A stretch of 64,000 nt of DNA from Escherichia coli. Lineage in GTDB: Bacteria; Pseudomonadota; Gammaproteobacteria; Enterobacterales; Enterobacteriaceae. Shown piece by piece: positions 18,564 through 29,272 of the stretch (position 1 is its first letter; the number at the start of each line of letters is the position of its first letter). The position numbers and the translations under genes are program-made. The notes beneath the pieces are model-generated. The model saw only the letters and a program-made list of their open reading frames with translations, was not told the DNA's origin and made no database searches. The stretch lies in the NCBI RefSeq assembly GCF_046105845.1, contig NZ_CP151004.1; one strand, written 5' to 3'.

Positions 18564-19757
18564 TCAAATCTGCCGTAACTGCGCCTCAACATACAAATAG
18601 CCAATCCCCAGCACCTGTTGTGCGCGGCTTAATTGCCCAAAGCCAATTTTCGTCGCTTTCACGCTCGGTCCTTCGTCGCGGTCGAACGGGTTAAATCCCG
18701 TCTGGCGAATAATGGTATTAAGCCAGTGCTCACCAAAGGCACAACTGCGACCGTACAACCAAATCTGATTAATATTGAGGATGTTGAGGAAGTTATACAG
18801 ACTCAAACCAATGGCGTTGGCAGAGCGATCAACCCAACTGGTGATCCACGGTTCTCCACTCTGCCAGGCAGCGATTAACTGCGCGGTAGTCAGTTTTTCA
18901 GGATCAAGCTGAGTATTAACCGGTTGTGATTTTAGCCATACCCGCGCCTGTTTTTTTAATGCGCTTAACGAGGCGACGGTTTCCAGGCAGCCGTAACGCC
19001 CGCAGTCGCAGACGACGCCATCCGGATTAACGATGGTGTGACCAATCTGTCCGCTACCATACAAACTGCCGCGATAAATTTGCTCGTTAATCACGAACGA
19101 CGAGCCAATGCCGTAATCAACGTTGATCACGCAGAAATCCCGTTCCTGCGAATTATTTTGCCATTTCTCCGCCAGCGCCAGCATCACGCAGTCATTATCG
19201 ACCATCACCCGAATGCCGAGCTTCTCTTCCAGCAGATACTTTACCTCAACCGGCGTTGTCCACGGCGCTTGCGGCATGGTTTGCGACACGCCAGTCACCG
19301 GATCAACCTGACCGTGGATTGCCAGCGCCAGGTTGATGGTACGGTCCGGCCACAATTTACGGTGGCGATGCCAGCATTTTTCGATTTCGGACAGCAGCGC
19401 CTGCGGCGTCGGTGCATCAATCTGTAAATACTCAAATTCACCTTTCGGACTTAAACAAGCATTAGCAACCTGACACTCAATACTGGTGGGCGTCACGTTC
19501 AGGCACAGCGTCCAGTCACCTTCCGGCGCAATCAGCCATGTACCGCTACTATGCCCGCGCGTATGGCTTTCATCGTCGATATTCACCACCCGTTTTTCGC
19601 TTTCCAGTTCCTGCAAAATATTACTGACCGCCGGAATCGAAATTTGCGCCAGCCGGGCCAGGGTTGATTTATTGGCGCGCTTTTGCCGGTACAGCAGTTC
19701 CAGAATCACGCATTTGTTATGGTGGCGGATCTGTTGATTGTTAATGCAGGCTCTCAT
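18564..19757 (-). CDS. yphH: ROK-family (NagC/XylR-like) transcriptional regulator
   Basis: 397-aa ORF with N-terminal HTH (KSTLARLAQISIPAVSNILQELE) and the ROK zinc motif GHTIVNPDGVVCDCGRYGCLE. Confidence 0.88.
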   Translation of the reverse strand: MRACINNQQIRHHNKCVILELLYRQKRANKSTLARLAQISIPAVSNILQELESEKRVVNIDDESHTRGHSSGTWLIAPEGDWTLCLNVTPTSIECQVANACLSPKGEFEYLQIDAPTPQALLSEIEKCWHRHRKLWPDRTINLALAIHGQVDPVTGVSQTMPQAPWTTPVEVKYLLEEKLGIRVMVDNDCVMLALAEKWQNNSQERDFCVINVDYGIGSSFVINEQIYRGSLYGSGQIGHTIVNPDGVVCDCGRYGCLETVASLSALKKQARVWLKSQPVNTQLDPEKLTTAQLIAAWQSGEPWITSWVDRSANAIGLSLYNFLNILNINQIWLYGRSCAFGEHWLNTIIRQTGFNPFDRDEGPSVKATKIGFGQLSRAQQVLGIGYLYVEAQLRQI

Positions 19758-19874
19758 CTTTACTAAACCTTGTTTAGTTAATTGCGTGATTATTCCGCGA
19801 AAACATTGCCAGATTGTTCAATACACTGCCACAAATCTTTTAATTCAGTATGTCTTGTTAATATTGAGGGCACC

Positions 19875-22800
19875 ATGACTCCAGTAAAAGTGTGGCAAGA
19901 GCGCGTTGAGATCCCGACCTATGAAACCGGGCCACAGGATATACATCCCATGTTCCTGGAAAATCGCGTTTATCAGGGATCGTCCGGCGCGGTTTATCCC
20001 TACGGCGTGACCGATACGCTGAGCGAGCAGAAAACCCTGAAATCCTGGCAGGCTGTGTGGCTGGAAAACGACTACATCAAAGTGATGATCCTGCCGGAAC
20101 TGGGCGGTCGGGTGCATCGCGCATGGGATAAAGTGAAACAGCGCGATTTTGTCTATCACAATGAAGTCATTAAACCTGCGCTGGTGGGGCTGCTGGGACC
20201 GTGGATCTCCGGTGGGATTGAGTTTAACTGGCCGCAACACCATCGCCCGACCACCTTTATGCCCGTTGATTTCACCCTCGAAGCCCATGAAGACGGTGCA
20301 CAGACGGTGTGGGTCGGCGAAACGGAGCCGATGCATGGTTTACAGGTGATGACAGGTTTCACCCTGCGCCCTGACCGGGCGGCGCTGGAAATCGCCAGCC
20401 GCGTCTATAACGGCAACGCCACGCCGCGTCATTTCTTGTGGTGGGCCAACCCGGCAGTGAAAGGGGGTGAAGGGCATCAGAGCGTTTTCCCACCGGATGT
20501 GACTGCGGTGTTTGATCACGGCAAACGGGCCGTCTCCGCTTTCCCCATCGCCACCGGCACTTACTACAAAGTGGACTACTCCGCCGGAGTGGACATTTCT
20601 CGCTATAAAAATGTGCCTGTTCCAACCTCATATATGGCCGAAAAATCGCAGTACGATTTTGTCGGCGCGTGGTGTCACGATGAAGATGGCGGTTTGCTAC
20701 ACGTTGCCAACCACCATATTGCGCCAGGTAAAAAACAGTGGAGCTGGGGACACAGTGAATTCGGCCAGGCGTGGGATAAGAGCCTGACTGACAATAACGG
20801 CCCGTATATCGAACTGATGACCGGTATTTTTGCCGATAACCAGCCTGATTTTACCTGGCTTGATGCTTACGAAGAGAAGCGTTTTGAGCAGTATTTCCTG
20901 CCTTACCATTCTTTGGGCATGGTGCAAAACGCCTCCCGCGATGCGGTGATTAAACTCCAGCGTAGCGAGCGGGGGATTGAGTGGGGGGTGTATGCCATCT
21001 CTCCGTTGAAAGGATACCGTCTGGCGATCCGCGAAATCGGCAAATGCAACGCGTTGCTCGATGATGCCGTGACCCTGACACCAGCGACCGCCATCCAGGG
21101 CGTGTTGCACGGTATCAATCCTGAAAGGCTGACCATTGAACTCTCCGATGCCGACGGCAATATCATACTGAGTTATCAGGAACATCAGCCGCAAGAGTTG
21201 CCGTTGCCGGACGTCGCCAAAGCGCCACTGGCAGCACAAGACATTACCAGTACAGATGAAGCCTGGTTTATCGGTCAGCATCTGGAGCAATATCATCACG
21301 CCAGCCGTTCACCGTTCGATTACTACCTGCGCGGCGTGGCGCTGGATCCGCTGGATTATCGCTGTAACCTGGCGCTGGCGATGCTGGAATATAACCGCGC
21401 CGATTTCCCGCAAGCGGTGGCGTATGCCACTCAGGCGCTGAAACGCGCACATGCGCTGAACAAAAATCCGCAGTGCGGACAGGCCAGTTTGATTCGCGCC
21501 AGTGCTTACGAACGTCAGGGACAATATCAACAAGCCGAAGAGGATTTCTGGCGTGCGGTCTGGAGCGGCAATAGTAAAGCAGGCGGCTATTATGGTCTGG
21601 CACGACTGGCGACGCGTAATGGTCACTTCGATGCTGGTCTGGATTTTTGCCAACAAAGTCTTCGCGCCTGCCCAACCAATCAGGAAGTGCTTTGCCTGCA
21701 TAATCTGCTGCTGGTGTTAAGTGGTCGTCAGGACAACGCGCGTTTGCAGCGCGAGAAACTGCTGCGCGATTATCCGCTGAACGCCACTCTGTGGTGGCTG
21801 AACTGGTTCGATGGTCGTAGCGAATCAGCCCTCGCGCAGTGGCGCGGTCTGTGTCAGGGACGCGACGTTAACGCCCTGATGACCGCCGGGCAACTGATTA
21901 ACTGGGGAATGCCCACCCTGGCGGCAGAGATGCTGAACGCACTGGACTGCCAGCGCACGCTGCCGCTTTACCTGCAAGCCAGCTTGCTGCCGAAAGCCGA
22001 ACGCGGCGAACTGGTCGCAAAAGCCATTGATGTCTTCCCGCAGTTTGTCCGTTTCCCGAATACGCTGGAAGAAGTGGCGGCGCTGGAGAGTATTGAAGAG
22101 TGCTGGTTTGCCCGTCATTTACTGGCCTGCTTCTACTACAACAAGCGCAGCTACAACAAAGCCATTACTTTATGGCAACGTTGCGTAGAGATGTCGCCGG
22201 AGTTTGCCGACGGCTGGCGCGGGTTAGCGATCCATGCGTGGAATAAGCAACACGATTATGAGCTGGCCGCGCGTTATCTTGATAATGCTTATCAGCTTGC
22301 GCCGCAGGATGCACGTCTGCTTTTCGAACGGGATTTGCTGGATAAGTTAAGCGGAGCCACACCGGAGAAACGACTGGCGCGTCTGGAAAATAATCTGGAA
22401 ATTGCGCTGAAACGCGACGACATGACCGCAGAACTGCTCAATTTGTGGCATCTCACGGGTCAGGCAGACAAAGCGGCGGACATTCTCGCCACGCGCAAAT
22501 TCCACCCGTGGGAAGGCGGGGAAGGGAAGATCACCAGTCAGTTTATCCTCAACCAGTTATTACGCGCCTGGCAGCATCTTGATGCCAGAGAGCCGCAGCA
22601 GGCCAGCGAACTGCTTCATGCCGCGTTGCATTATCCGGAGAATTTAAGCGAAGGCCGTTTACCGGGGCAAACTGACAACGACATCTGGTTCTGGCAGGCG
22701 ATATGCGCCAACGCGCAGGGCGATGAAACTGAAGCGACGCGTTGTTTACGTCTGGCGGCGACCGGCGATCGCACCATTAACATCCACAGTTATTACAACG

Positions 22801-23165
22801 ATCAGCCGGTTGATTATCTCTTCTGGCAAGGAATGGCGCTGCGACTGCTGGGCGAACAACACACCGCACAGCAACTGTTTAGTGAAATGAAACAGTGGGC
22901 GCAAGAGATGGCGAAAACCAGTATCGAGGCGGATTTCTTTGCCGTCTCGCAGCCTGACTTGTTGTCGCTGTATGGCGATTTACAACAGCAACATAAAGAA
23001 AAATGCCTGATGGTGGCGATGCTGGCGTCCGCAGGACTCGGGGAGGTTGCGCAATATGAATCTGCTCGCGCTGAATTGACGGCGATTAATCCGGCCTGGC
23101 CGAAAGCAGCATTATTCACCACCGTGATGCCTTTTATTTTAACCGCGTTCACTAAACCTTATTAA
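19875..23165 (+). CDS. yphG: Large uncharacterized protein with TPR-like repeats in the C-terminal two-thirds
   Basis: Start taken at ATG 19875 (MTPVKVWQERVEIPTYETGPQD...; GAGGG ribosome-binding site 5 nt upstream) rather than the ORF-track start at 19782, which would leave no room for the divergent yphH promoter. Confidence 0.8.
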   Translation: MTPVKVWQERVEIPTYETGPQDIHPMFLENRVYQGSSGAVYPYGVTDTLSEQKTLKSWQAVWLENDYIKVMILPELGGRVHRAWDKVKQRDFVYHNEVIKPALVGLLGPWISGGIEFNWPQHHRPTTFMPVDFTLEAHEDGAQTVWVGETEPMHGLQVMTGFTLRPDRAALEIASRVYNGNATPRHFLWWANPAVKGGEGHQSVFPPDVTAVFDHGKRAVSAFPIATGTYYKVDYSAGVDISRYKNVPVPTSYMAEKSQYDFVGAWCHDEDGGLLHVANHHIAPGKKQWSWGHSEFGQAWDKSLTDNNGPYIELMTGIFADNQPDFTWLDAYEEKRFEQYFLPYHSLGMVQNASRDAVIKLQRSERGIEWGVYAISPLKGYRLAIREIGKCNALLDDAVTLTPATAIQGVLHGINPERLTIELSDADGNIILSYQEHQPQELPLPDVAKAPLAAQDITSTDEAWFIGQHLEQYHHASRSPFDYYLRGVALDPLDYRCNLALAMLEYNRADFPQAVAYATQALKRAHALNKNPQCGQASLIRASAYERQGQYQQAEEDFWRAVWSGNSKAGGYYGLARLATRNGHFDAGLDFCQQSLRACPTNQEVLCLHNLLLVLSGRQDNARLQREKLLRDYPLNATLWWLNWFDGRSESALAQWRGLCQGRDVNALMTAGQLINWGMPTLAAEMLNALDCQRTLPLYLQASLLPKAERGELVAKAIDVFPQFVRFPNTLEEVAALESIEECWFARHLLACFYYNKRSYNKAITLWQRCVEMSPEFADGWRGLAIHAWNKQHDYELAARYLDNAYQLAPQDARLLFERDLLDKLSGATPEKRLARLENNLEIALKRDDMTAELLNLWHLTGQADKAADILATRKFHPWEGGEGKITSQFILNQLLRAWQHLDAREPQQASELLHAALHYPENLSEGRLPGQTDNDIWFWQAICANAQGDETEATRCLRLAATGDRTINIHSYYNDQPVDYLFWQGMALRLLGEQHTAQQLFSEMKQWAQEMAKTSIEADFFAVSQPDLLSLYGDLQQQHKEKCLMVAMLASAGLGEVAQYESARAELTAINPAWPKAALFTTVMPFILTAFTKPY

Positions 23166-23251
23166 CTGTAATATTTGAGCGGCACGCGCTGCCGCTCACG
23201 CTCAAATAATTAAAATAAGCCGTTGTAAATAAAAACCCTACAGGAGGCACT

Positions 23252-24235
23252 ATGCCTAAAAAAATGAGAACAACCCGTAATCTATTATTAATGGCTACGC
23301 TATTAGGTAGCGCACTATTTGCCAGGGCTGCGGATAAAGAAATGACCATTGGCGCAATATACCTTGATACCCAGGGATATTACGCTGGCGTGCGTCAGGG
23401 CGTTCAGGATGCGGCAAAAGATTCTTCAGTACAGGTACAGTTAATTGAAACTAACGCCCAGGGTGATATTTCGAAAGAAAGTACCTTTGTTGATACCCTC
23501 GTGGCGCGTAATGTCGATGCCATTATTTTATCGGCAGTGTCTGAAAATGGCAGTAGCCGTACCGTTCGTCGCGCCAGTGAAGCGGGTATTCCGGTGATTT
23601 GCTACAACACCTGTATTAATCAAAAAGGTGTCGATAAATATGTCTCGGCGTATCTGGTCGGCGATCCGCTGGAATTTGGTAAAAAACTGGGTAACGCTGC
23701 CGCCGATTATTTTATTGCCAACAAAATTGACCAGCCGAAAATTGCCGTCATCAATTGCGAAGCCTTTGAAGTTTGTGTGCAGCGCCGTAAAGGATTTGAA
23801 GAAGTATTAAAAATCCGTGTTCCCGGCGCGCAAATTGTCGCTAATCAGGAAGGGACTGTTTTAGATAAAGCGATTTCCGTTGGTGAAAAACTAATTATCT
23901 CCACGCCGGATCTCAACGCCATTATGGGAGAATCGGGCGGTGCGACACTCGGCGCGGTAAAAGCGGTACGTAATCAAAATCAGACCGGAAAAATTGCTGT
24001 TTTCGGTTCGGATATGACCACTGAAATTGCTCAGGAGCTGGAAAACAATCAGGTGTTGAAAGCGGTGGTGGATATTTCCGGTAAGAAAATGGGCAATGCT
24101 GTTTTCGCGCAAACTTTGAAGGTTATCAATAAACAAGCCGACGGTGAAAAAGTGATTCAGGTGCCTATCGATCTCTATACCAAAACGGAAGACGGTAAAC
24201 AGTGGCTGGCAACGCACGTTGATGGTCTGCCCTAA
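23252..24235 (+). CDS. yphF: Periplasmic sugar-binding protein of an ABC transporter (RbsB/LacI-type fold)
   Basis: Signal peptide MPKKMRTTRNLLLMATLLGSALFARA followed by a periplasmic binding-protein-like domain; adjacent to the ATPase and permease genes. Confidence 0.88.
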   Translation: MPKKMRTTRNLLLMATLLGSALFARAADKEMTIGAIYLDTQGYYAGVRQGVQDAAKDSSVQVQLIETNAQGDISKESTFVDTLVARNVDAIILSAVSENGSSRTVRRASEAGIPVICYNTCINQKGVDKYVSAYLVGDPLEFGKKLGNAAADYFIANKIDQPKIAVINCEAFEVCVQRRKGFEEVLKIRVPGAQIVANQEGTVLDKAISVGEKLIISTPDLNAIMGESGGATLGAVKAVRNQNQTGKIAVFGSDMTTEIAQELENNQVLKAVVDISGKKMGNAVFAQTLKVINKQADGEKVIQVPIDLYTKTEDGKQWLATHVDGLP

Positions 24236-24257
24236 TCGCTGATTCGCAGAGGTCCCT

Positions 24258-25769
24258 ATGTTCACGGCAACAGAGGCAGTCCCGGTAGCAAAAGTGGTGG
24301 CAGGAAATAAGCGTTATCCCGGCGTCGTTGCGTTGGATAACGTTAACTTCACGCTCAATAAAGGCGAAGTTCGTGCGCTGTTAGGCAAAAACGGCGCGGG
24401 CAAATCGACCCTCATTCGAATGCTTACCGGCAGTGAACGTCCGGATAGCGGTGATATCTGGATTGGCGAGACGCGACTGGAAGGTGACGAAGCTACGTTG
24501 ACTCGCCGTGCCGCTGAACTGGGGGTTCGTGCGGTTTATCAGGAGTTAAGTCTGGTGGAGGGATTGACGGTGGCGGAAAACCTCTGCCTCGGTCAGTGGC
24601 CCCGCCGCAACGGCATGATTGATTACCTGCAAATGGCGCAGGATGCCCAACGTTGCTTACAGGCGCTGGGCGTTGACGTTAGCCCTGAACAACTTGTTTC
24701 AACGCTAAGCCCGGCGCAAAAGCAACTGGTGGAAATTGCGCGGGTGATGAAGGGCGAGCCGCGCGTGGTCATTCTTGATGAACCTACCAGTTCGCTTGCC
24801 AGTGCGGAAGTTGAACTGGTGATCAGCGCGGTTAAAAAGATGTCGGCACTGGGCGTGGCGGTGATTTATGTCAGCCACCGGATGGAAGAAATTCGCCGCA
24901 TTGCCTCCTGTGCCACCGTTATGCGCGATGGTCAGGTGGCGGGCGATGTGATGCTCGAAAACACCTCCACGCATCATATTGTGTCGCTAATGCTCGGGCG
25001 CGATCACGTTGATATTGCGCCGGTTTCCCCTCAGGAAATTGTCGATCAGGCCGTGCTGGAAGTCCGTGCGTTACGCCATAAGCCCAAGCTGGAGGATATC
25101 AGCTTTACGCTCCGTCGTGGCGAAGTACTCGGCATTGCTGGCCTGCTGGGGGCAGGGCGCAGTGAATTGTTGAAAGCCATAGTTGGGCTGGAGACGTATG
25201 AACAGGGCGAAATTGTTATCAACGGCGAGAAAATCACGCGCCCCGATTACGGCGACATGCTGAAACGCGGCATTGGCTATACGCCAGAAAACCGCAAAGA
25301 AGCGGGGATCATTCCCTGGCTGGGCGTTGACGAAAATACAGTGCTGACCAATCGGCAAAAAATCAGCGCCAACGGTGTGCTGCAATGGTCCACCATCCGC
25401 CGCCTGACCGAAGAGGTGATGCAGCGGATGACGGTCAAGGCCGCCAGTAGCGAAACGCCCATCGGCACGCTTTCTGGCGGCAATCAGCAAAAAGTGGTGA
25501 TCGGTCGTTGGGTCTATGCCGCCAGCCAGATTTTGTTGCTCGACGAGCCAACGCGTGGCGTCGATATCGAAGCCAAACAGCAGATTTACCGTATTGTCCG
25601 CGAGCTGGCTGCCGAAGGAAAAAGCGTGGTGTTTATCTCCAGTGAAGTGGAGGAGTTGCCGCTGGTGTGCGACCGCATTCTGTTGTTACAGCACGGTACG
25701 TTCTCGCAGGAGTTTCACGCTCCGGTCAATGTGGATGAGCTGATGTCCGCCATTCTGTCTGTGCACTGA
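24258..25769 (+). CDS. yphE: ABC transporter ATP-binding protein with duplicated nucleotide-binding domains (sugar importer type)
   Basis: Walker A GKNGAGKST, signature LSGGNQQKV and a second nucleotide-binding domain; 503 aa. Confidence 0.9.
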   Translation: MFTATEAVPVAKVVAGNKRYPGVVALDNVNFTLNKGEVRALLGKNGAGKSTLIRMLTGSERPDSGDIWIGETRLEGDEATLTRRAAELGVRAVYQELSLVEGLTVAENLCLGQWPRRNGMIDYLQMAQDAQRCLQALGVDVSPEQLVSTLSPAQKQLVEIARVMKGEPRVVILDEPTSSLASAEVELVISAVKKMSALGVAVIYVSHRMEEIRRIASCATVMRDGQVAGDVMLENTSTHHIVSLMLGRDHVDIAPVSPQEIVDQAVLEVRALRHKPKLEDISFTLRRGEVLGIAGLLGAGRSELLKAIVGLETYEQGEIVINGEKITRPDYGDMLKRGIGYTPENRKEAGIIPWLGVDENTVLTNRQKISANGVLQWSTIRRLTEEVMQRMTVKAASSETPIGTLSGGNQQKVVIGRWVYAASQILLLDEPTRGVDIEAKQQIYRIVRELAAEGKSVVFISSEVEELPLVCDRILLLQHGTFSQEFHAPVNVDELMSAILSVH

Positions 25770-25792
25770 TGAATTTTACCGAGGAACCTAAG

Positions 25793-26791
25793 ATGTCTGC
25801 TTCGTCATTACCATTGCCGCAGGGCAAGAGCGTCTCGCTCAAACAATTTGTCAGTCGCCATATTAATGAGATCGGTTTGCTGGTGGTGATCGCCATTCTT
25901 TATCTGGTCTTCTCCCTGAACGCGCCTGGCTTTATCTCATTGAATAACCAGATGAACGTGCTGCGCGATGCCGCCACCATCGGGATCGCCGCATGGGCGA
26001 TGACGCTGATTATTATCTCCGGTGAAATTGATGTCAGCGTTGGGCCGATGGTGGCTTTTGTCTCGGTGTGCCTGGCATTTTTGCTGCAATTTGAAGTTCC
26101 GCTGGCGGTGGCGTGTCTGCTGGTGTTGCTGTTAGGCGCGCTGATGGGAACGCTCGCCGGGGTGCTGCGCGGCGTGTTTAACGTGCCAAGTTTTGTTGCC
26201 ACGCTGGGTTTATGGAGCGCCCTGCGCGGAATGGGGCTGTTTATGACCAACGCCTTGCCAGTGCCGATTGATGAAAACGAAGTGCTGGACTGGCTGGGGG
26301 GACAATTTCTCGGTGTGCCGGTATCCGCGCTGATCATGATGGTGTTGTTTGCGCTGTTTGTGTTCATCAGCCGCAAAACCGCCTTCGGGCGCTCGGTTTT
26401 TGCCGTTGGCGGTAATGCCACGGCGGCGCAGTTGTGCGGTATTAACGTTCGTCGGGTACGCATTCTTATCTTTACCCTTTCGGGATTATTAGCGGCGGTG
26501 ACCGGCATTTTGTTGGCGGCGCGCCTCGGTTCCGGTAACGCAGGTGCCGCAAACGGTCTGGAGTTTGACGTCATCGCCGCGGTCGTGGTTGGCGGTACGG
26601 CGCTTTCCGGTGGTCGCGGCTCGTTGTTCGGTACGCTGCTTGGCGTACTGGTGATTACGCTAATCGGTAACGGTCTGGTGCTGCTCGGGATTAACTCCTT
26701 TTTCCAGCAGGTGGTGCGCGGCGTCATCATCGTGGTGGCGGTGCTGGCGAATATCTTGCTGACTCAGCGAAGCAGTAAAGCGAAACGCTAA
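25793..26791 (+). CDS. yphD: ABC transporter permease (RbsC-like, multiple transmembrane helices)
   Basis: Hydrophobic polytopic protein; start at ATG 25793 (MSASSLPL...; GAGGAA 8 nt upstream) giving 332 aa; the alternative start at 25769 overlaps the yphE stop. Confidence 0.82.
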   Translation: MSASSLPLPQGKSVSLKQFVSRHINEIGLLVVIAILYLVFSLNAPGFISLNNQMNVLRDAATIGIAAWAMTLIIISGEIDVSVGPMVAFVSVCLAFLLQFEVPLAVACLLVLLLGALMGTLAGVLRGVFNVPSFVATLGLWSALRGMGLFMTNALPVPIDENEVLDWLGGQFLGVPVSALIMMVLFALFVFISRKTAFGRSVFAVGGNATAAQLCGINVRRVRILIFTLSGLLAAVTGILLAARLGSGNAGAANGLEFDVIAAVVVGGTALSGGRGSLFGTLLGVLVITLIGNGLVLLGINSFFQQVVRGVIIVVAVLANILLTQRSSKAKR

Positions 26792-26856
26792 ACCTAAACG
26801 CCCCTGGCGCGGGTGCGGCAGGGATGAAAATTAATCGTATTGTTAATGAGGGATTT

Positions 26857-27918
26857 ATGAAAACGATGCTGGCAGCTTATTTACCAGGAAATTCGACCGT
26901 CGATCTGCGGGAAGTTGCGGTGCCGACGCCGGGGATTAACCAGGTACTGATCAAAATGAAATCATCCGGAATTTGCGGAAGCGATGTCCACTATATCTAC
27001 CACCAGCACCGTGCTACGGCGGCGGCACCCGATAAACCGTTATACCAGGGATTTATCAACGGTCATGAACCGTGCGGGCAAATTGTGGCGATGGGGCAAG
27101 GCTGCCGCCATTTTAAAGAGGGCGACCGTGTGCTGGTGTATCATATTTCTGGCTGTGGTTTTTGCCCGAACTGCCGCCGCGGCTTTCCTATCTCTTGTAC
27201 TGGCAAAGGAAAAGCGGCTTACGGCTGGCAGCGTGACGGCGGTCATGCCGAATATCTGCTGGCGGAAGAAAAAGATCTGATCCTCCTGCCGGATGCGCTG
27301 AGCTACGAAGATGGTGCGTTTATCAGTTGCGGCGTTGGCACGGCCTATGAAGGGATTTTGCGCGGCGAAGTTTCCGGCAGCGATAACGTGCTGGTGGTCG
27401 GTCTGGGGCCGGTCGGCATGATGGCGATGATGCTGGCGAAAGGTCGCGGTGCAAAACGGATCATCGGCGTTGATATGCTGCCGGAACGTCTGGCGATGGC
27501 AAAACAGTTAGGGGTGATGGATCACGGCTATTTAGCAACGACCGAAGGTCTGTCGCAGATTATCGCCGAACTCACCCACGGCGGCGCGGATGTTGCGCTC
27601 GATTGTTCCGGTAATGCCGCAGGTCGCTTGCTGGCACTGCAATCCACTGCTGACTGGGGACGGGTGGTTTACATCGGGGAAACCGGAAAAGTGGAATTCG
27701 AGGTTAGCGCTGATCTGATGCATCATCAACGGCGGATTATTGGCTCCTGGGTGACCAGTCTATTCCATATGGAAAAATGCGCCCACGATTTAACGGACTG
27801 GAAACTGTGGCCGCGTAATGCCATTACCCATCGCTTCTCACTGGAACAGGCAGGAGATGCCTATGCGCTGATGGCGAGCGGTAAATGCGGGAAAGTTGTG
27901 ATTAACTTCCCGGATTAA
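26857..27918 (+). CDS. yphC: Zinc-dependent alcohol/polyol dehydrogenase (MDR family)
   Basis: GHEPCGQIV catalytic-zinc motif, a CGFCPNCRRGFPISC structural-zinc cysteine cluster and a GLGPVGMMAM Rossmann motif; internal start with GAGGG ribosome-binding site (353 aa). Confidence 0.85.
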   Translation: MKTMLAAYLPGNSTVDLREVAVPTPGINQVLIKMKSSGICGSDVHYIYHQHRATAAAPDKPLYQGFINGHEPCGQIVAMGQGCRHFKEGDRVLVYHISGCGFCPNCRRGFPISCTGKGKAAYGWQRDGGHAEYLLAEEKDLILLPDALSYEDGAFISCGVGTAYEGILRGEVSGSDNVLVVGLGPVGMMAMMLAKGRGAKRIIGVDMLPERLAMAKQLGVMDHGYLATTEGLSQIIAELTHGGADVALDCSGNAAGRLLALQSTADWGRVVYIGETGKVEFEVSADLMHHQRRIIGSWVTSLFHMEKCAHDLTDWKLWPRNAITHRFSLEQAGDAYALMASGKCGKVVINFPD

Positions 27919-27929
27919 GGAGTCAGCGG

Positions 27930-28802
27930 ATGACCATCTATACCTTATCTCACGGGCCGCTAAAGCTGGACGTTTCTGACCGGGGCGGCGTCATCGAAGG
28001 CTTCTGGCGTGACGCGACGCCGCTCTTACGTCCCGGTAAAAAAAGCGGTGTGGCAACCGATGCCTCTTGTTTTCCGCTGGTGCCGTTTGCAAACCGGGTG
28101 AGCGGCAATCGTTTTGTCTGGCAGGGGCGTGAGTATCAACTGCAACCGAATGTTGAGTGGGATGCGCACTATCTGCACGGCGACGGCTGGCTGGGGCAGT
28201 GGCAATGTGTCTCGCGCAGCGAAGATAGCTTGTGTCTGGTGTATGAACATCGCAGCGGTGTTTATCACTATCGGGTAAGTCAGGCGTTTCATTTAACGGC
28301 AGATACGCTGACGGTGACGCTCTCTGTCACCAATCAAGGGGCAGAGACGCTGCCATTTGGTACCGGCTGGCATCCTTATTTTCCGTTGTCACCACAAACG
28401 CGGATTCAGGCGCAGGCGAGCGGTTACTGGCTGGAGCGGGAGCAGTGGCTGGCGGGTGAGTTTTGCGAGCAGCTACCGCAAGAGCTGGATTTCAACCAGC
28501 TCGCGCCGTTGCCGTGCCAGTGGGTAAACAATGGCTTTGCCGGATGGAATGGTCAGGCCCGCATCGAGCAGCCGCAGGAGGGTTATGCCATCATCATGGA
28601 AACGACGCCACCTGCACCATGTTATTTCATCTTTGTTTCCGACCCGGCGTTTGATAAAGGATATGCGTTTGATTTCTTCTGTCTGGAACCGATGAGCCAT
28701 GCGCCGGATGACCATCATCGCCCGGAAGGGGGTGATCTCATTGCGCTTGCACCAGGGGAATCAACAACTTCAGAGATGTCGTTGCGGGTTGCGTTACTGT
28801 AA
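27930..28802 (+). CDS. yphB: Aldose 1-epimerase-family protein
   Basis: 290-aa ORF MTIYTLSHGPLKLDVSDRGGVIEGFWRDATPLL... of mutarotase-like length; assignment by recollection of YphB. Confidence 0.85.
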   Translation: MTIYTLSHGPLKLDVSDRGGVIEGFWRDATPLLRPGKKSGVATDASCFPLVPFANRVSGNRFVWQGREYQLQPNVEWDAHYLHGDGWLGQWQCVSRSEDSLCLVYEHRSGVYHYRVSQAFHLTADTLTVTLSVTNQGAETLPFGTGWHPYFPLSPQTRIQAQASGYWLEREQWLAGEFCEQLPQELDFNQLAPLPCQWVNNGFAGWNGQARIEQPQEGYAIIMETTPPAPCYFIFVSDPAFDKGYAFDFFCLEPMSHAPDDHHRPEGGDLIALAPGESTTSEMSLRVALL

Positions 28803-28811
28803 TTTATAAAA

Positions 28812-28845
28812 TGCCGGATAAGGCGTTCACGCCGCATCCGGCATC
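28812..28845. repeat. REP (repetitive extragenic palindrome) element
   Basis: gccggataaggcgttcacgccgcatccggc: classic REP palindrome between the convergent yphB and yphA. Confidence 0.55.
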
Positions 28846-28849
28846 TTTC

Positions 28850-29272
28850 CTAACGCCGATCGAGAGAAATTGCCCCCGGCCCGGTAATTGCCAACAGCAG
28901 GAATGCGCCAGCGATACTGACATTCTTCCAGAAATTAATCATATTTGGCCCAATCGCATCGCCGGTCATATCCCAGTAATGGTGACCAATTACCGCTGTA
29001 CCCAGCGTGTAGAAAATAAACAGCACCGCCAGCGGACGGGTGAAAAAGCCAAGCACGATTAATATCGCGGCGGGCACTTCCATAACTACCGCAATAATAG
29101 CTGCCAGCATCGGCATCGGCGCGCCCAGCGAGGCCATATATTGGACCGTACCGTCAAAGCCCATCATTTTGGGAAAACCAAAAATAATGAAAATTAAGAT
29201 GACGGCGATACGGGCAATTAATAACAAAACGGGGCGGGCAGCACCAAAATCAAAATAACGTAGTGAGTTCAT
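28850..29272 (-). CDS. yphA: DoxX-family inner membrane protein
   Basis: [41 protein letters not shown]...; four hydrophobic segments; internal start giving 140 aa. Confidence 0.85.

Follow-up and report, generated by a model that had tools for sequence, protein, structure and literature searches.

In the xyl, fuc, rha and rbs operons of bacteria, a sugar transporter is combined with a mutarotase and with the first enzyme of the pathway. In rbs and related operons that rely on a CUT2 (monosaccharide-class) ATP-binding cassette (ABC) importer, the conversion between ring forms is carried out by a dedicated enzyme such as the pyranase RbsD, FucU, RhaM or XylM. The yph region of Escherichia coli (yphH, yphGFEDCB and yphA), analyzed here at positions 18564-29272 of a 64,000-nucleotide stretch of contig NZ_CP151004.1 (the window, to which all coordinates refer), resembles these operons in having a CUT2 importer, a presumed cytoplasmic ring or anomer converter and a dedicated repressor. 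It differs from the rbs type in lacking a kinase, in having a converting protein of a different fold and in containing an additional zinc-dependent dehydrogenase. The converter would be YphG, a protein of 1096 residues, and the yph cluster appears to be a sugar uptake and catabolic operon built around an uncharacterized enzyme architecture.

A second point of comparison is the E. coli sulfoquinovose (yih) cluster, also a sugar cluster of "y-genes", which encodes a transporter, the glycosidase YihQ, the mutarotase YihR, the isomerase YihS and the reductase YihU, and which remained an orphan until the right substrate was tried. The features in common are a transporter, an oxidoreductase, a dedicated regulator and a small protein of the aldose-1-epimerase family. 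However, yih uses a different transporter class and a DeoR regulator, possesses its own kinase and aldolase, and has neither a DUF5107 protein nor a tetratricopeptide repeat (TPR) protein. At the level of the individual protein, the closest known counterparts are the aldose-1-epimerases (GalM, YeaD, YihR and YphB; PF01263, EC 5.1.3.x), to which YphG shows no detectable sequence homology. It is three times larger than these enzymes, with an extra beta-sandwich and a 630-residue TPR solenoid; its second catalytic His could not be mapped; and canonical mutarotases are found alongside YphG, which has not taken their place. With regard to overall build, a mutarotase-like supersandwich joined to a large array of helical hairpins, in proteins of similar size from glycan-degradation loci, is also found in glycoside hydrolase (GH) families GH15, GH65 and GH94 and in lyases of the PL8 type. 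The solved DUF5107 structure is BDI_1685 of Parabacteroides distasonis (PDB 5cd6, a structural-genomics "TPR-domain containing protein"), a short form of 575 residues that includes only the start of the TPR solenoid, is about 20% identical to YphG and is likewise without an assigned function.

YphG is probably an uncharacterized sugar-converting enzyme rather than a processor of polysaccharides, and the best reading of the evidence is that of a cytoplasmic enzyme whose target would be the anomeric centre of a small, imported sugar of galactose type. Its chemistry is tentatively taken to be that of a ring-opening isomerase or anomerase working on a free monosaccharide, because its fold lies near that of catalytic mutarotases, the transporter classes linked to it and its cytoplasmic location point in this direction, and the operon parallels those in which a transporter, a mutarotase and a first enzyme are grouped.

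The yphG gene (19875-23165, plus strand; "DUF5107 domain-containing protein" in RefSeq) encodes its 1096 residues from the RefSeq start. A Pfam scan assigns residues 39-324 to DUF5107 (PF17128; E 3.1e-55) and yields only weak TPR_16 matches (E 3e-6) beyond it. An earlier note on this DNA, made by a model from the letters and a list of open reading frames (ORFs), had proposed structure prediction and a fold search as checks, and these gave a confident AlphaFold2 model (mean predicted local distance difference test score 94.9, predicted template-modelling score 0.93) composed of three parts. The all-beta N-terminal domain (residues 1-345; 19875-20909), which contains DUF5107 and the presumed sugar site, folds as a galactose-mutarotase-type beta-supersandwich, the fold of the aldose-1-epimerase family. 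It is followed by a small beta-sandwich (residues 350-435; 20922-21179), whose strands DSSP places at 357-435, and by a C-terminal part (residues 460-1091; 21252-23147) in which about 36 helices form tandem helix-turn-helix repeats arranged as a TPR solenoid with conserved non-helical loops. The best matches of this helical part were OGT, SPINDLY, subunits of APC/C and proteins of the Rap/PilF type. The note's description of the C-terminal two-thirds as TPR-like was thus roughly right, the helices accounting for 58% of the protein. Its statement that no catalytic motif is obvious was correct only in part, given the mutarotase-type fold of the DUF5107 region and the concentration of conserved residues there. 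Its view of YphG as unusual is well founded. A fold search of AFDB50 for an annotated relative returned structural neighbours named only "DUF5107 domain-containing protein", and 5cd6 was the only entry recovered by a profile search of the PDB.

Conservation was assessed in an alignment of 71 homologous sequences with identities down to 26%. Of 98 positions conserved at 90% or more, 73 lie in the N-terminal domain, roughly the first third of the protein, 23 in the TPR part and one in the middle sandwich, where the commonest residue has a mean frequency of 0.34; this sandwich is probably a structural spacer. Conserved residues of the N-terminal domain include E116, H122, H123, R124, N192, D208, H215, D240, K286, K287, E313, D321 and D325 together with many Trp residues, and the distant 5cd6 shares E116, H123, W190, N192, H215, K287, E313 and D321. 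E313, H215 and H122/H123 are invariant or nearly so in the family, and E313 is located in a beta-strand that leads into a PD loop, as is the catalytic Glu of YphB (CLEP...APD). A mutarotase-like His/His/Glu constellation formed by H123, H215 and E313 is therefore plausible. Conservation in the TPR part is strongest in non-helical insertions (RFP at 726-728, FHPWEGGEG at 876-884 and YPENL at 920-924), accompanied by W563, R782, E818 and R833. This pattern is more suggestive of loops that contribute to a single functional site than of a general-purpose scaffold.

An exhaustive search with the N-terminal 475 residues of YphG retrieved 3927 clusters at 50% identity with E values up to 0.001, and 894 at E values up to 1e-30; no characterized member was found in the family. 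Among the 150 best matches, the architecture of about 1100 residues is kept down to 35% identity in the N-terminal region. The cluster containing E. coli YphG comprises 18305 full-length member sequences, and further clusters (P0009 and P0033) represent forms of 900 residues (1109 members) and 692 residues (1402 members) from run-level assemblies, which may be contig-end fragments or truncated alleles. No signal peptide was detected in YphG or in any of 80 close homologues, all of which begin directly with a conserved M..VKVWEE.V.IPTY segment, and YphG and these homologues are accordingly predicted to be cytoplasmic.

The genomic context of YphG homologues was examined in 80 loci from species-representative genomes, covering Enterobacterales, Aeromonas, Photobacterium, many Bacteroidota, Paenibacillus, Lachnospiraceae, Ruminococcaceae and Bifidobacterium. 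With two Escherichia duplicates removed and three metagenome contigs (L002-L004) added, they form a set of 81 non-redundant loci from four phyla. Neighbouring ORFs within 8 kb, called naively, were clustered, and the clusters were typed with NCBIfam and Pfam from single representatives. An XylE-like sugar porter of the major facilitator superfamily (MFS) is present at 43 of the 81 loci (34 of 38 in Bacteroidota and 8 of 10 in Gammaproteobacteria), mostly adjacent to the YphG gene and on the same strand, and CUT2 ABC ATPases occur at 16, so that one or both of these transporter types accompany YphG at 54 loci; oligosaccharide-type CUT1 permeases (6 loci) and GPH transporters (3 loci) are less common. 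Galactosidases of GH2, GH35, GH36 or GH97 are encoded at 44 loci, and a GH2 protein close to the exo-beta-1,4-galactosidase BT4151 of B. thetaiotaomicron (1420 bits against a cut-off of 1500) at 30. Small mutarotases were counted at 23 loci, either as GalM, as YphB-like proteins or as a neighbour cluster (c56) taken to be the source of a DUF4432/Aldose_epim match, and zinc-dependent alcohol dehydrogenases (Zn-ADHs) at 8. Regulators belong to the AraC family at 50 loci, usually adjacent to and divergent from the YphG gene, and to the ROK family at 12. Sulfatases (9 loci, 8 of them in Bacteroidota), GDSL esterases (7 loci, all in Bacteroidota) and SusC/D (12 loci, beside Bacteroidota homologues only) complete the picture. 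In the Bacteroidota loci most glycosidases carry a signal peptide, whereas YphG and GalM do not. Collectively, these neighbours most likely tie the YphG family to glycan breakdown at a late, small-sugar step, although the galactose theme, drawn as it is from other phyla, need not hold for the E. coli paralogue. For the CUT2 binding proteins encoded next to Firmicute homologues, NCBIfam gave generic RbsB/XylF-like matches only, and a literature search on BT4150-BT4152 found nothing useful. In three Firmicute loci (L032, L052 and L069), a protein of about 140-155 residues is encoded directly downstream of the YphG homologue and is probably the source of a weak match to the cupin-type Pfam family Ureidogly_lyase (E 6e-5) in a bundled scan.

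The linked MFS porters of Hafnia, Aeromonas and Budvicia are 56-59% identical to those of Bacteroides fragilis and Alkalitalea, and the YphG proteins of the same loci are 41-44% identical, which suggests that porter and YphG have been inherited as one module. A second gammaproteobacterial paralogue group (Aeromonas, Hafnia and Citrobacter), 54-58% identical to YphG, is found in a minimal unit made up of a ROK regulator, YphG, the porter and a YphB-like protein, with no glycosidase or kinase. This unit mirrors the layouts of the xyl, fuc, rha and rbs operons. In Enterobacter sp. BIGb0383, strain RIT691 and Budvicia (L007, L008 and L009), an XylE-like porter gene is located downstream of yphGFEDCB, and no DNA-level homologue of this porter was found among 5426 E. 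coli genomes. Relative to the minimal unit, the E. coli type carries an ABC system and YphC in addition, and the porter has been lost from Escherichia. A similar gene set in a different order, independently re-assembled, is present in a metagenome-assembled genome of a Dorea species (L078, 449-17592), which encodes a CUT2 ABC system, a short-chain dehydrogenase/reductase (SDR), two Zn-ADHs (one scoring 354 bits to YphC), two ROK proteins, a xylulokinase-like FGGY kinase, an AraC regulator and a YphG homologue, and which looks like a polyol-utilization locus.

In the pathway that we infer, with YphG as a catalyst and YphB and YphC in supporting roles, a YphH-controlled operon would bring a small sugar or sugar alcohol, probably of galactose type, into the cell and convert it in the cytoplasm. 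The substrate would be imported by YphFED and bound by the N-terminal domain of YphG, in a pocket closed by the conserved loops of the TPR solenoid. YphG would then open the ring of the free monosaccharide, and re-closure or isomerization would follow as an anomer, ring-form, aldose-ketose or epimer conversion. YphB may supply or remove the required anomer, and YphC may connect the matching polyol or keto form in an NAD(H)-dependent step. The product would be a common hexose taken over by housekeeping kinases, which would account for an operon without a kinase or an aldolase. Three more specific activities were considered and set aside: a galactofuranose-to-pyranose converter, as the linked GH2, GH35, GH36 and GH97 enzymes belong to families that are typically pyranosidases; an isomerase between galactose and tagatose; and a lactonase that would serve an oxidative route for galactose, the last two because no kinase or aldolase is linked.

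Several observations weigh against ring opening by YphG. A conserved solenoid of about 630 residues far exceeds the need of any known monosaccharide isomerase or mutarotase, and the canonical mutarotases encoded beside YphG homologues would make simple galactose mutarotation redundant. H123, H215 and E313 match the mutarotase triad in order and position only; H186, which lies opposite the catalytic His of YphB in a weak hhalign alignment, is not conserved in the family; comparison by hhalign with GalM and YphB profiles, in shallow and in deeper 219-sequence versions, gave probabilities below 1% and hence no sequence homology; and the Pfam scan of YphG returned no Aldose_epim (PF01263) match. 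A motif search for GalK- or GalT-like neighbours in the 81 loci found none. In addition, 18 of 122 full-length family representatives (about 15%) have signal-peptide-like N-termini, and such a secreted branch fits a glycan-active enzyme better; one of its members, P0266 (1417 residues), ends in a CBM9_1 carbohydrate-binding module. Among other members of this branch, P0242 (1399 residues) ends in an Exo_endo_phos domain, one is encoded in a SusC/D locus with GH16 and sulfatases, one beside AraC, Aldose_epim, GH36 and a sugar porter, and another beside Aldose_epim and an SDR.

In a different chemistry, YphG would found a new family of cytoplasmic glycoside-cleaving enzymes, either hydrolases or phosphorylases. 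Taken by itself this is possible but doubtful, and it is nearly equal in standing to ring opening. The substrate would be a small galactose-type glycoside, with a small aglycone, that fits monosaccharide-class importers, such as a galactosyl-polyol, galactosyl-glycerol or a short galactoside, with YphB anomerizing the freed sugar and YphC oxidizing the freed polyol. E. coli MglB handles methyl-galactoside and galactosyl-glycerol. Glycoside cleavage accounts better for the size of YphG, since a protein of about 1100 residues with a supersandwich, a beta-sandwich and a helical repeat resembles large glycosidases and phosphorylases (by comparison with GH15, GH65 and GH94) more than isomerases. 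It also accounts better for the stand-alone pairs of AraC and YphG, which are common (AraC is present at 27 of 32 Firmicute loci, usually divergent) and have a layout typical of glycosidase genes; for the recurrence of dehydrogenases of two unrelated families (Zn-ADH at 8 loci, SDR beside P0254 and in the Dorea locus); and for the secreted relatives, including the CBM9 fusion and the member found with SusC/D, GH16 and sulfatases. The galactosidases at 44 loci, the six CUT1 and three GPH occurrences and the logic of transporter, hydrolase and mutarotase, shared with yihO, yihQ and yihR, are consistent with it as well. On the other hand, YphG contains no Pfam or NCBIfam glycosidase catalytic domain and fails membership of every known glycosidase family, its helical part matches open TPR solenoids rather than (alpha/alpha)6 catalytic barrels, and monosaccharide porters dominate among the linked transporters. 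To our knowledge, no glycoside hydrolase has its catalytic centre in a mutarotase-type supersandwich, and we know of no bacterial members of the sugar-porter family that carry glycosides.

The same architecture could be read in a non-enzymatic way, YphG being a cytoplasmic sugar sensor or adaptor whose mutarotase-fold domain binds the imported sugar while the TPR solenoid docks on a regulator, a transporter or an enzyme and thereby tunes uptake or transcription. TPR solenoids are classical protein-protein interaction modules, and the matches of the helical part to OGT, SPINDLY, APC/C subunits and Rap/PilF-type proteins agree with such a role, as do the regulator genes that are usually the immediate divergent neighbours (AraC at 50 loci, ROK at 12) and the fact that Pfam, NCBIfam and hhalign give no sequence-level link to any enzyme family. 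Nevertheless, this alternative is unlikely. The regulator differs between phyla (AraC, ROK and, in one case, a hybrid of a periplasmic-binding-protein-type sugar-binding domain with an AraC-type helix-turn-helix) while YphG stays conserved, which speaks against a contact with one particular regulator; there is a secreted branch; the invariant His, Asp, Glu, Lys and Trp residues of the N-terminal domain are denser than sugar binding alone usually needs; and within the TPR part conservation is highest in non-helical loops and not on the concave peptide-binding face.

The processing of a polysaccharide or large glycan by YphG as the first step of the E. coli pathway, which the earlier note had suggested, is very improbable: related genes do lie in polysaccharide-utilization-type loci with SusC/D (12 loci), GH16, GH30, sulfatases and esterases, and one distant secreted member carries a CBM9 module, so that the idea retains some value for other phyla with their galactosidase neighbours and secreted minority branch, but YphG is predicted to be cytoplasmic, CUT2 importers carry ligands of monosaccharide size, the glycan-cleaving neighbours in Bacteroidota are mostly secreted while the YphG homologues of the 80-locus set are not, and the E. 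coli cluster encodes no GH, no secreted or surface glycan-cleaving enzyme, no SusC/D-type outer-membrane import and no secretion component.

Turning to the other products of the operon, yphF (23252-24235, plus strand) encodes the periplasmic substrate-binding protein, with an N-terminus (MPKKMRTTRNLLLMATLLGSALFARA) that reads as a Sec signal; yphE (24258-25769, plus strand) encodes a fused tandem ATPase; and yphD (25793-26791, plus strand; start codon according to RefSeq) encodes a single permease of the RbsC/AraH type. Together with the RbsB/MglB-type character of YphF, this composition identifies YphFED as a CUT2 importer. Its substrate-specific NCBIfam matches are all well below curated cut-offs, and no equivalog is reached (YphF: AlsB 65 bits, MglB 60; YphE: AraG 455, XylG 435, AlsA 424, MglA 414; YphD: RbsC 227, AraH 221). 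The nearest solved structure to YphF is 5hsg (E 5e-24), and its relatives in the PDB are ribose-, galactose-, allose- and galactofuranose-binding proteins. YphF has been detected by proteomics and was 3-4.6 fold more abundant on levoglucosan than on fructose, with MalE, XylF, MglA, YtfQ and UgpB rising together with it (PMC8753852). Levoglucosan was rejected as a specific substrate lead, since this joint rise with other binding and transport proteins looks like general catabolite derepression.

The next gene, yphC (26824-27918, plus strand), encodes a zinc-dependent medium-chain dehydrogenase of the polyol/threonine-dehydrogenase branch. Its motifs GICGSDVH, GHEPCG, CGFCPNCRRGFPISC (the structural-zinc motif) and GLGPVG provide the catalytic and structural zinc ligands and the GxGxxG NAD site. 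The NCBIfam scores of YphC are below cut-offs (Tdh 173 bits, IolM 170), and its nearest PDB entries include xylitol, sorbitol and threonine dehydrogenases. The small aldose-1-epimerase-family protein YphB (27930-28802, plus strand) is near-identical over its full length to PDB 3nre ("aldose 1-epimerase", b2544; E 1.5e-201), has the fold and the His/His/Glu motifs of that family (LHGDG, WHPYF and CLEP are visible) and has counterparts beside YphG homologues at 9 of 10 other gammaproteobacterial loci. By contrast with these conserved neighbours, yphA (28850-29272, minus strand), annotated in RefSeq as a DoxX-family membrane protein, adjoins the cluster only in Escherichia and lies upstream of yphH in two other genera. 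Because of this variable position, its membership in the sugar system is doubtful, and YphA is probably not part of it; its only NCBIfam match is a weak one to the HvfX family, linked to the maturation of copper-binding ribosomally synthesized and post-translationally modified peptides (41.6 bits against a cut-off of 80).

The regulator gene yphH (18564-19757, minus strand) diverges from yphG and encodes a ROK-family transcription regulator with an N-terminal helix-turn-helix and a ROK sugar-binding domain. YphH corresponds over its full length to the NagC/Mlc type of ROK repressor but is an equivalog of neither, as its scores to NagC (111.5 bits, residues 118-342) and Mlc (108.5 bits, residues 9-334) are far under the cut-offs. 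It has been described as a third, uncharacterized ROK repressor of E. coli (PMC4288165). Its dN/dS (ratio of nonsynonymous to synonymous substitution rates) is 0.04-0.06, and a ROK regulator adjoins the YphG homologue at all 10 other gammaproteobacterial loci. The intergenic control region between yphH and yphG (19758-19874) retains 84% column identity across five genera, including Escherichia, an Enterobacter species, strain RIT691 and Budvicia, despite dS values above 1 in the flanking genes. It contains the palindrome CTAAAC-N3-GTTTAG (19763-19777), present once in the window against 0.07 expected by chance and confined in its exact form to Escherichia, and a conserved block, TTGCGTGA..ATT..GC..AA. 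Both the palindrome and the conserved blocks are candidate YphH operators or promoter elements. A generic sigma-70 promoter scan and a terminator scan gave nothing above chance level, and inspection of the control region by eye revealed no convincing CRP site. The yphG frame remains open upstream to a TTG at 19782 (1127 residues), but homologues from all phyla start at the position matching the ATG at 19875, which is preceded 5-11 bases upstream by a conserved TTGAGGG; both features support the 1096-residue RefSeq start.

With respect to the locus as a whole, the region is flanked by glyA and by hcaD of the hca genes, and its gene set was taken from the ORF list and the RefSeq annotation of a strain 99.9% identical to the window. 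The coordinates, the gene inventory and the length of YphG given in the earlier note agree with both sources, and profile comparison upholds its family assignments for the ROK regulator, binding protein, double ATPase, permease, zinc-dependent dehydrogenase and aldose-1-epimerase-like protein. When 5426 complete E. coli genomes were searched with a 12-kb query spanning the yph region, 5425 gave a match and 5368 proved to contain at least 80% of the query. Every gene of the region is intact in the window. All seven genes from yphH to yphB have dN/dS values of 0.009-0.144 relative to E. albertii and an Enterobacter species, and the yphG alignments contain zero gaps and zero stops; these genes are under strong purifying selection, and the possibility raised in the note that yphG is a pseudogene is ruled out for the window. 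A premature stop at codon 811 (LAPQDAR to LAP-stop-DAR) is found in yphG of E. coli strain SCPM-O-B-8794 (L005, 2379-5670; 92% nucleotide identity to the window), so that the gene is inactivated in at least one lineage. Within yphD, an antisense ORF of 276 codons rich in Pro, Thr, Ser and Ala (25900-26730, minus strand) lies where the permease gene shows a strongly negative AT skew (-0.25); this frame, opposite a membrane-protein gene, is almost certainly spurious.

Although annotated in E. coli, the cluster counts as an orphan, as the note had stated. All eight yph proteins score under every NCBIfam equivalog cut-off, which leaves them without a database-assigned substrate, and our literature search found no paper that gives the yph genes a substrate or a functional treatment. 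The mentions of yphG that it recovered are a Klebsiella pneumoniae PCR marker and microarray gene lists only. Full-text searches gave no match for DUF5107 or PF17128 and only unrelated matches for "5CD6", and a search for the combination of mutarotase-like, tetratricopeptide and glycoside hydrolase found nothing useful.

On a broader scale, it is cautiously proposed that YphG and its approximately 3900 family clusters constitute a new class of carbohydrate enzyme, in which a catalytic mutarotase-type supersandwich is capped by a TPR solenoid and works with a dedicated XylE-like porter in a widespread, as yet unassigned step of galactose-type sugar use. This step could be an unusual ring, anomer or epimer conversion or the cleavage of small galactosyl-polyols such as galactosyl-glycerol and floridoside, in gut Bacteroidota, Lachnospiraceae, Paenibacillus, marine Flavobacteriia and Enterobacterales. 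The mutarotase-type fold of the conserved YphG domain, its cytoplasmic location, the size of the family, the cross-phylum module of porter and YphG and the galactose theme are new here. They narrow the search for a ligand to galactose-type monosaccharides, their polyols and small galactosides, and name E313, H215 and H123 as predicted catalytic residues. Species with the four-gene unit of regulator, porter, YphG and small mutarotase offer a setting for such work, with E. coli as a tractable model.

The yph genes are among the few carbohydrate clusters of the E. coli core genome still without a substrate, and the YphG family is embedded in the galactoside-utilization loci of bacteria that rank among the major glycan degraders of gut, soil and sea. 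An activity assigned to YphG would carry over to the annotation of thousands of genes, could uncover a cytoplasmic step that is missing after the galactosidases and would show what role a mutarotase fold plays when it is fused to a TPR solenoid.

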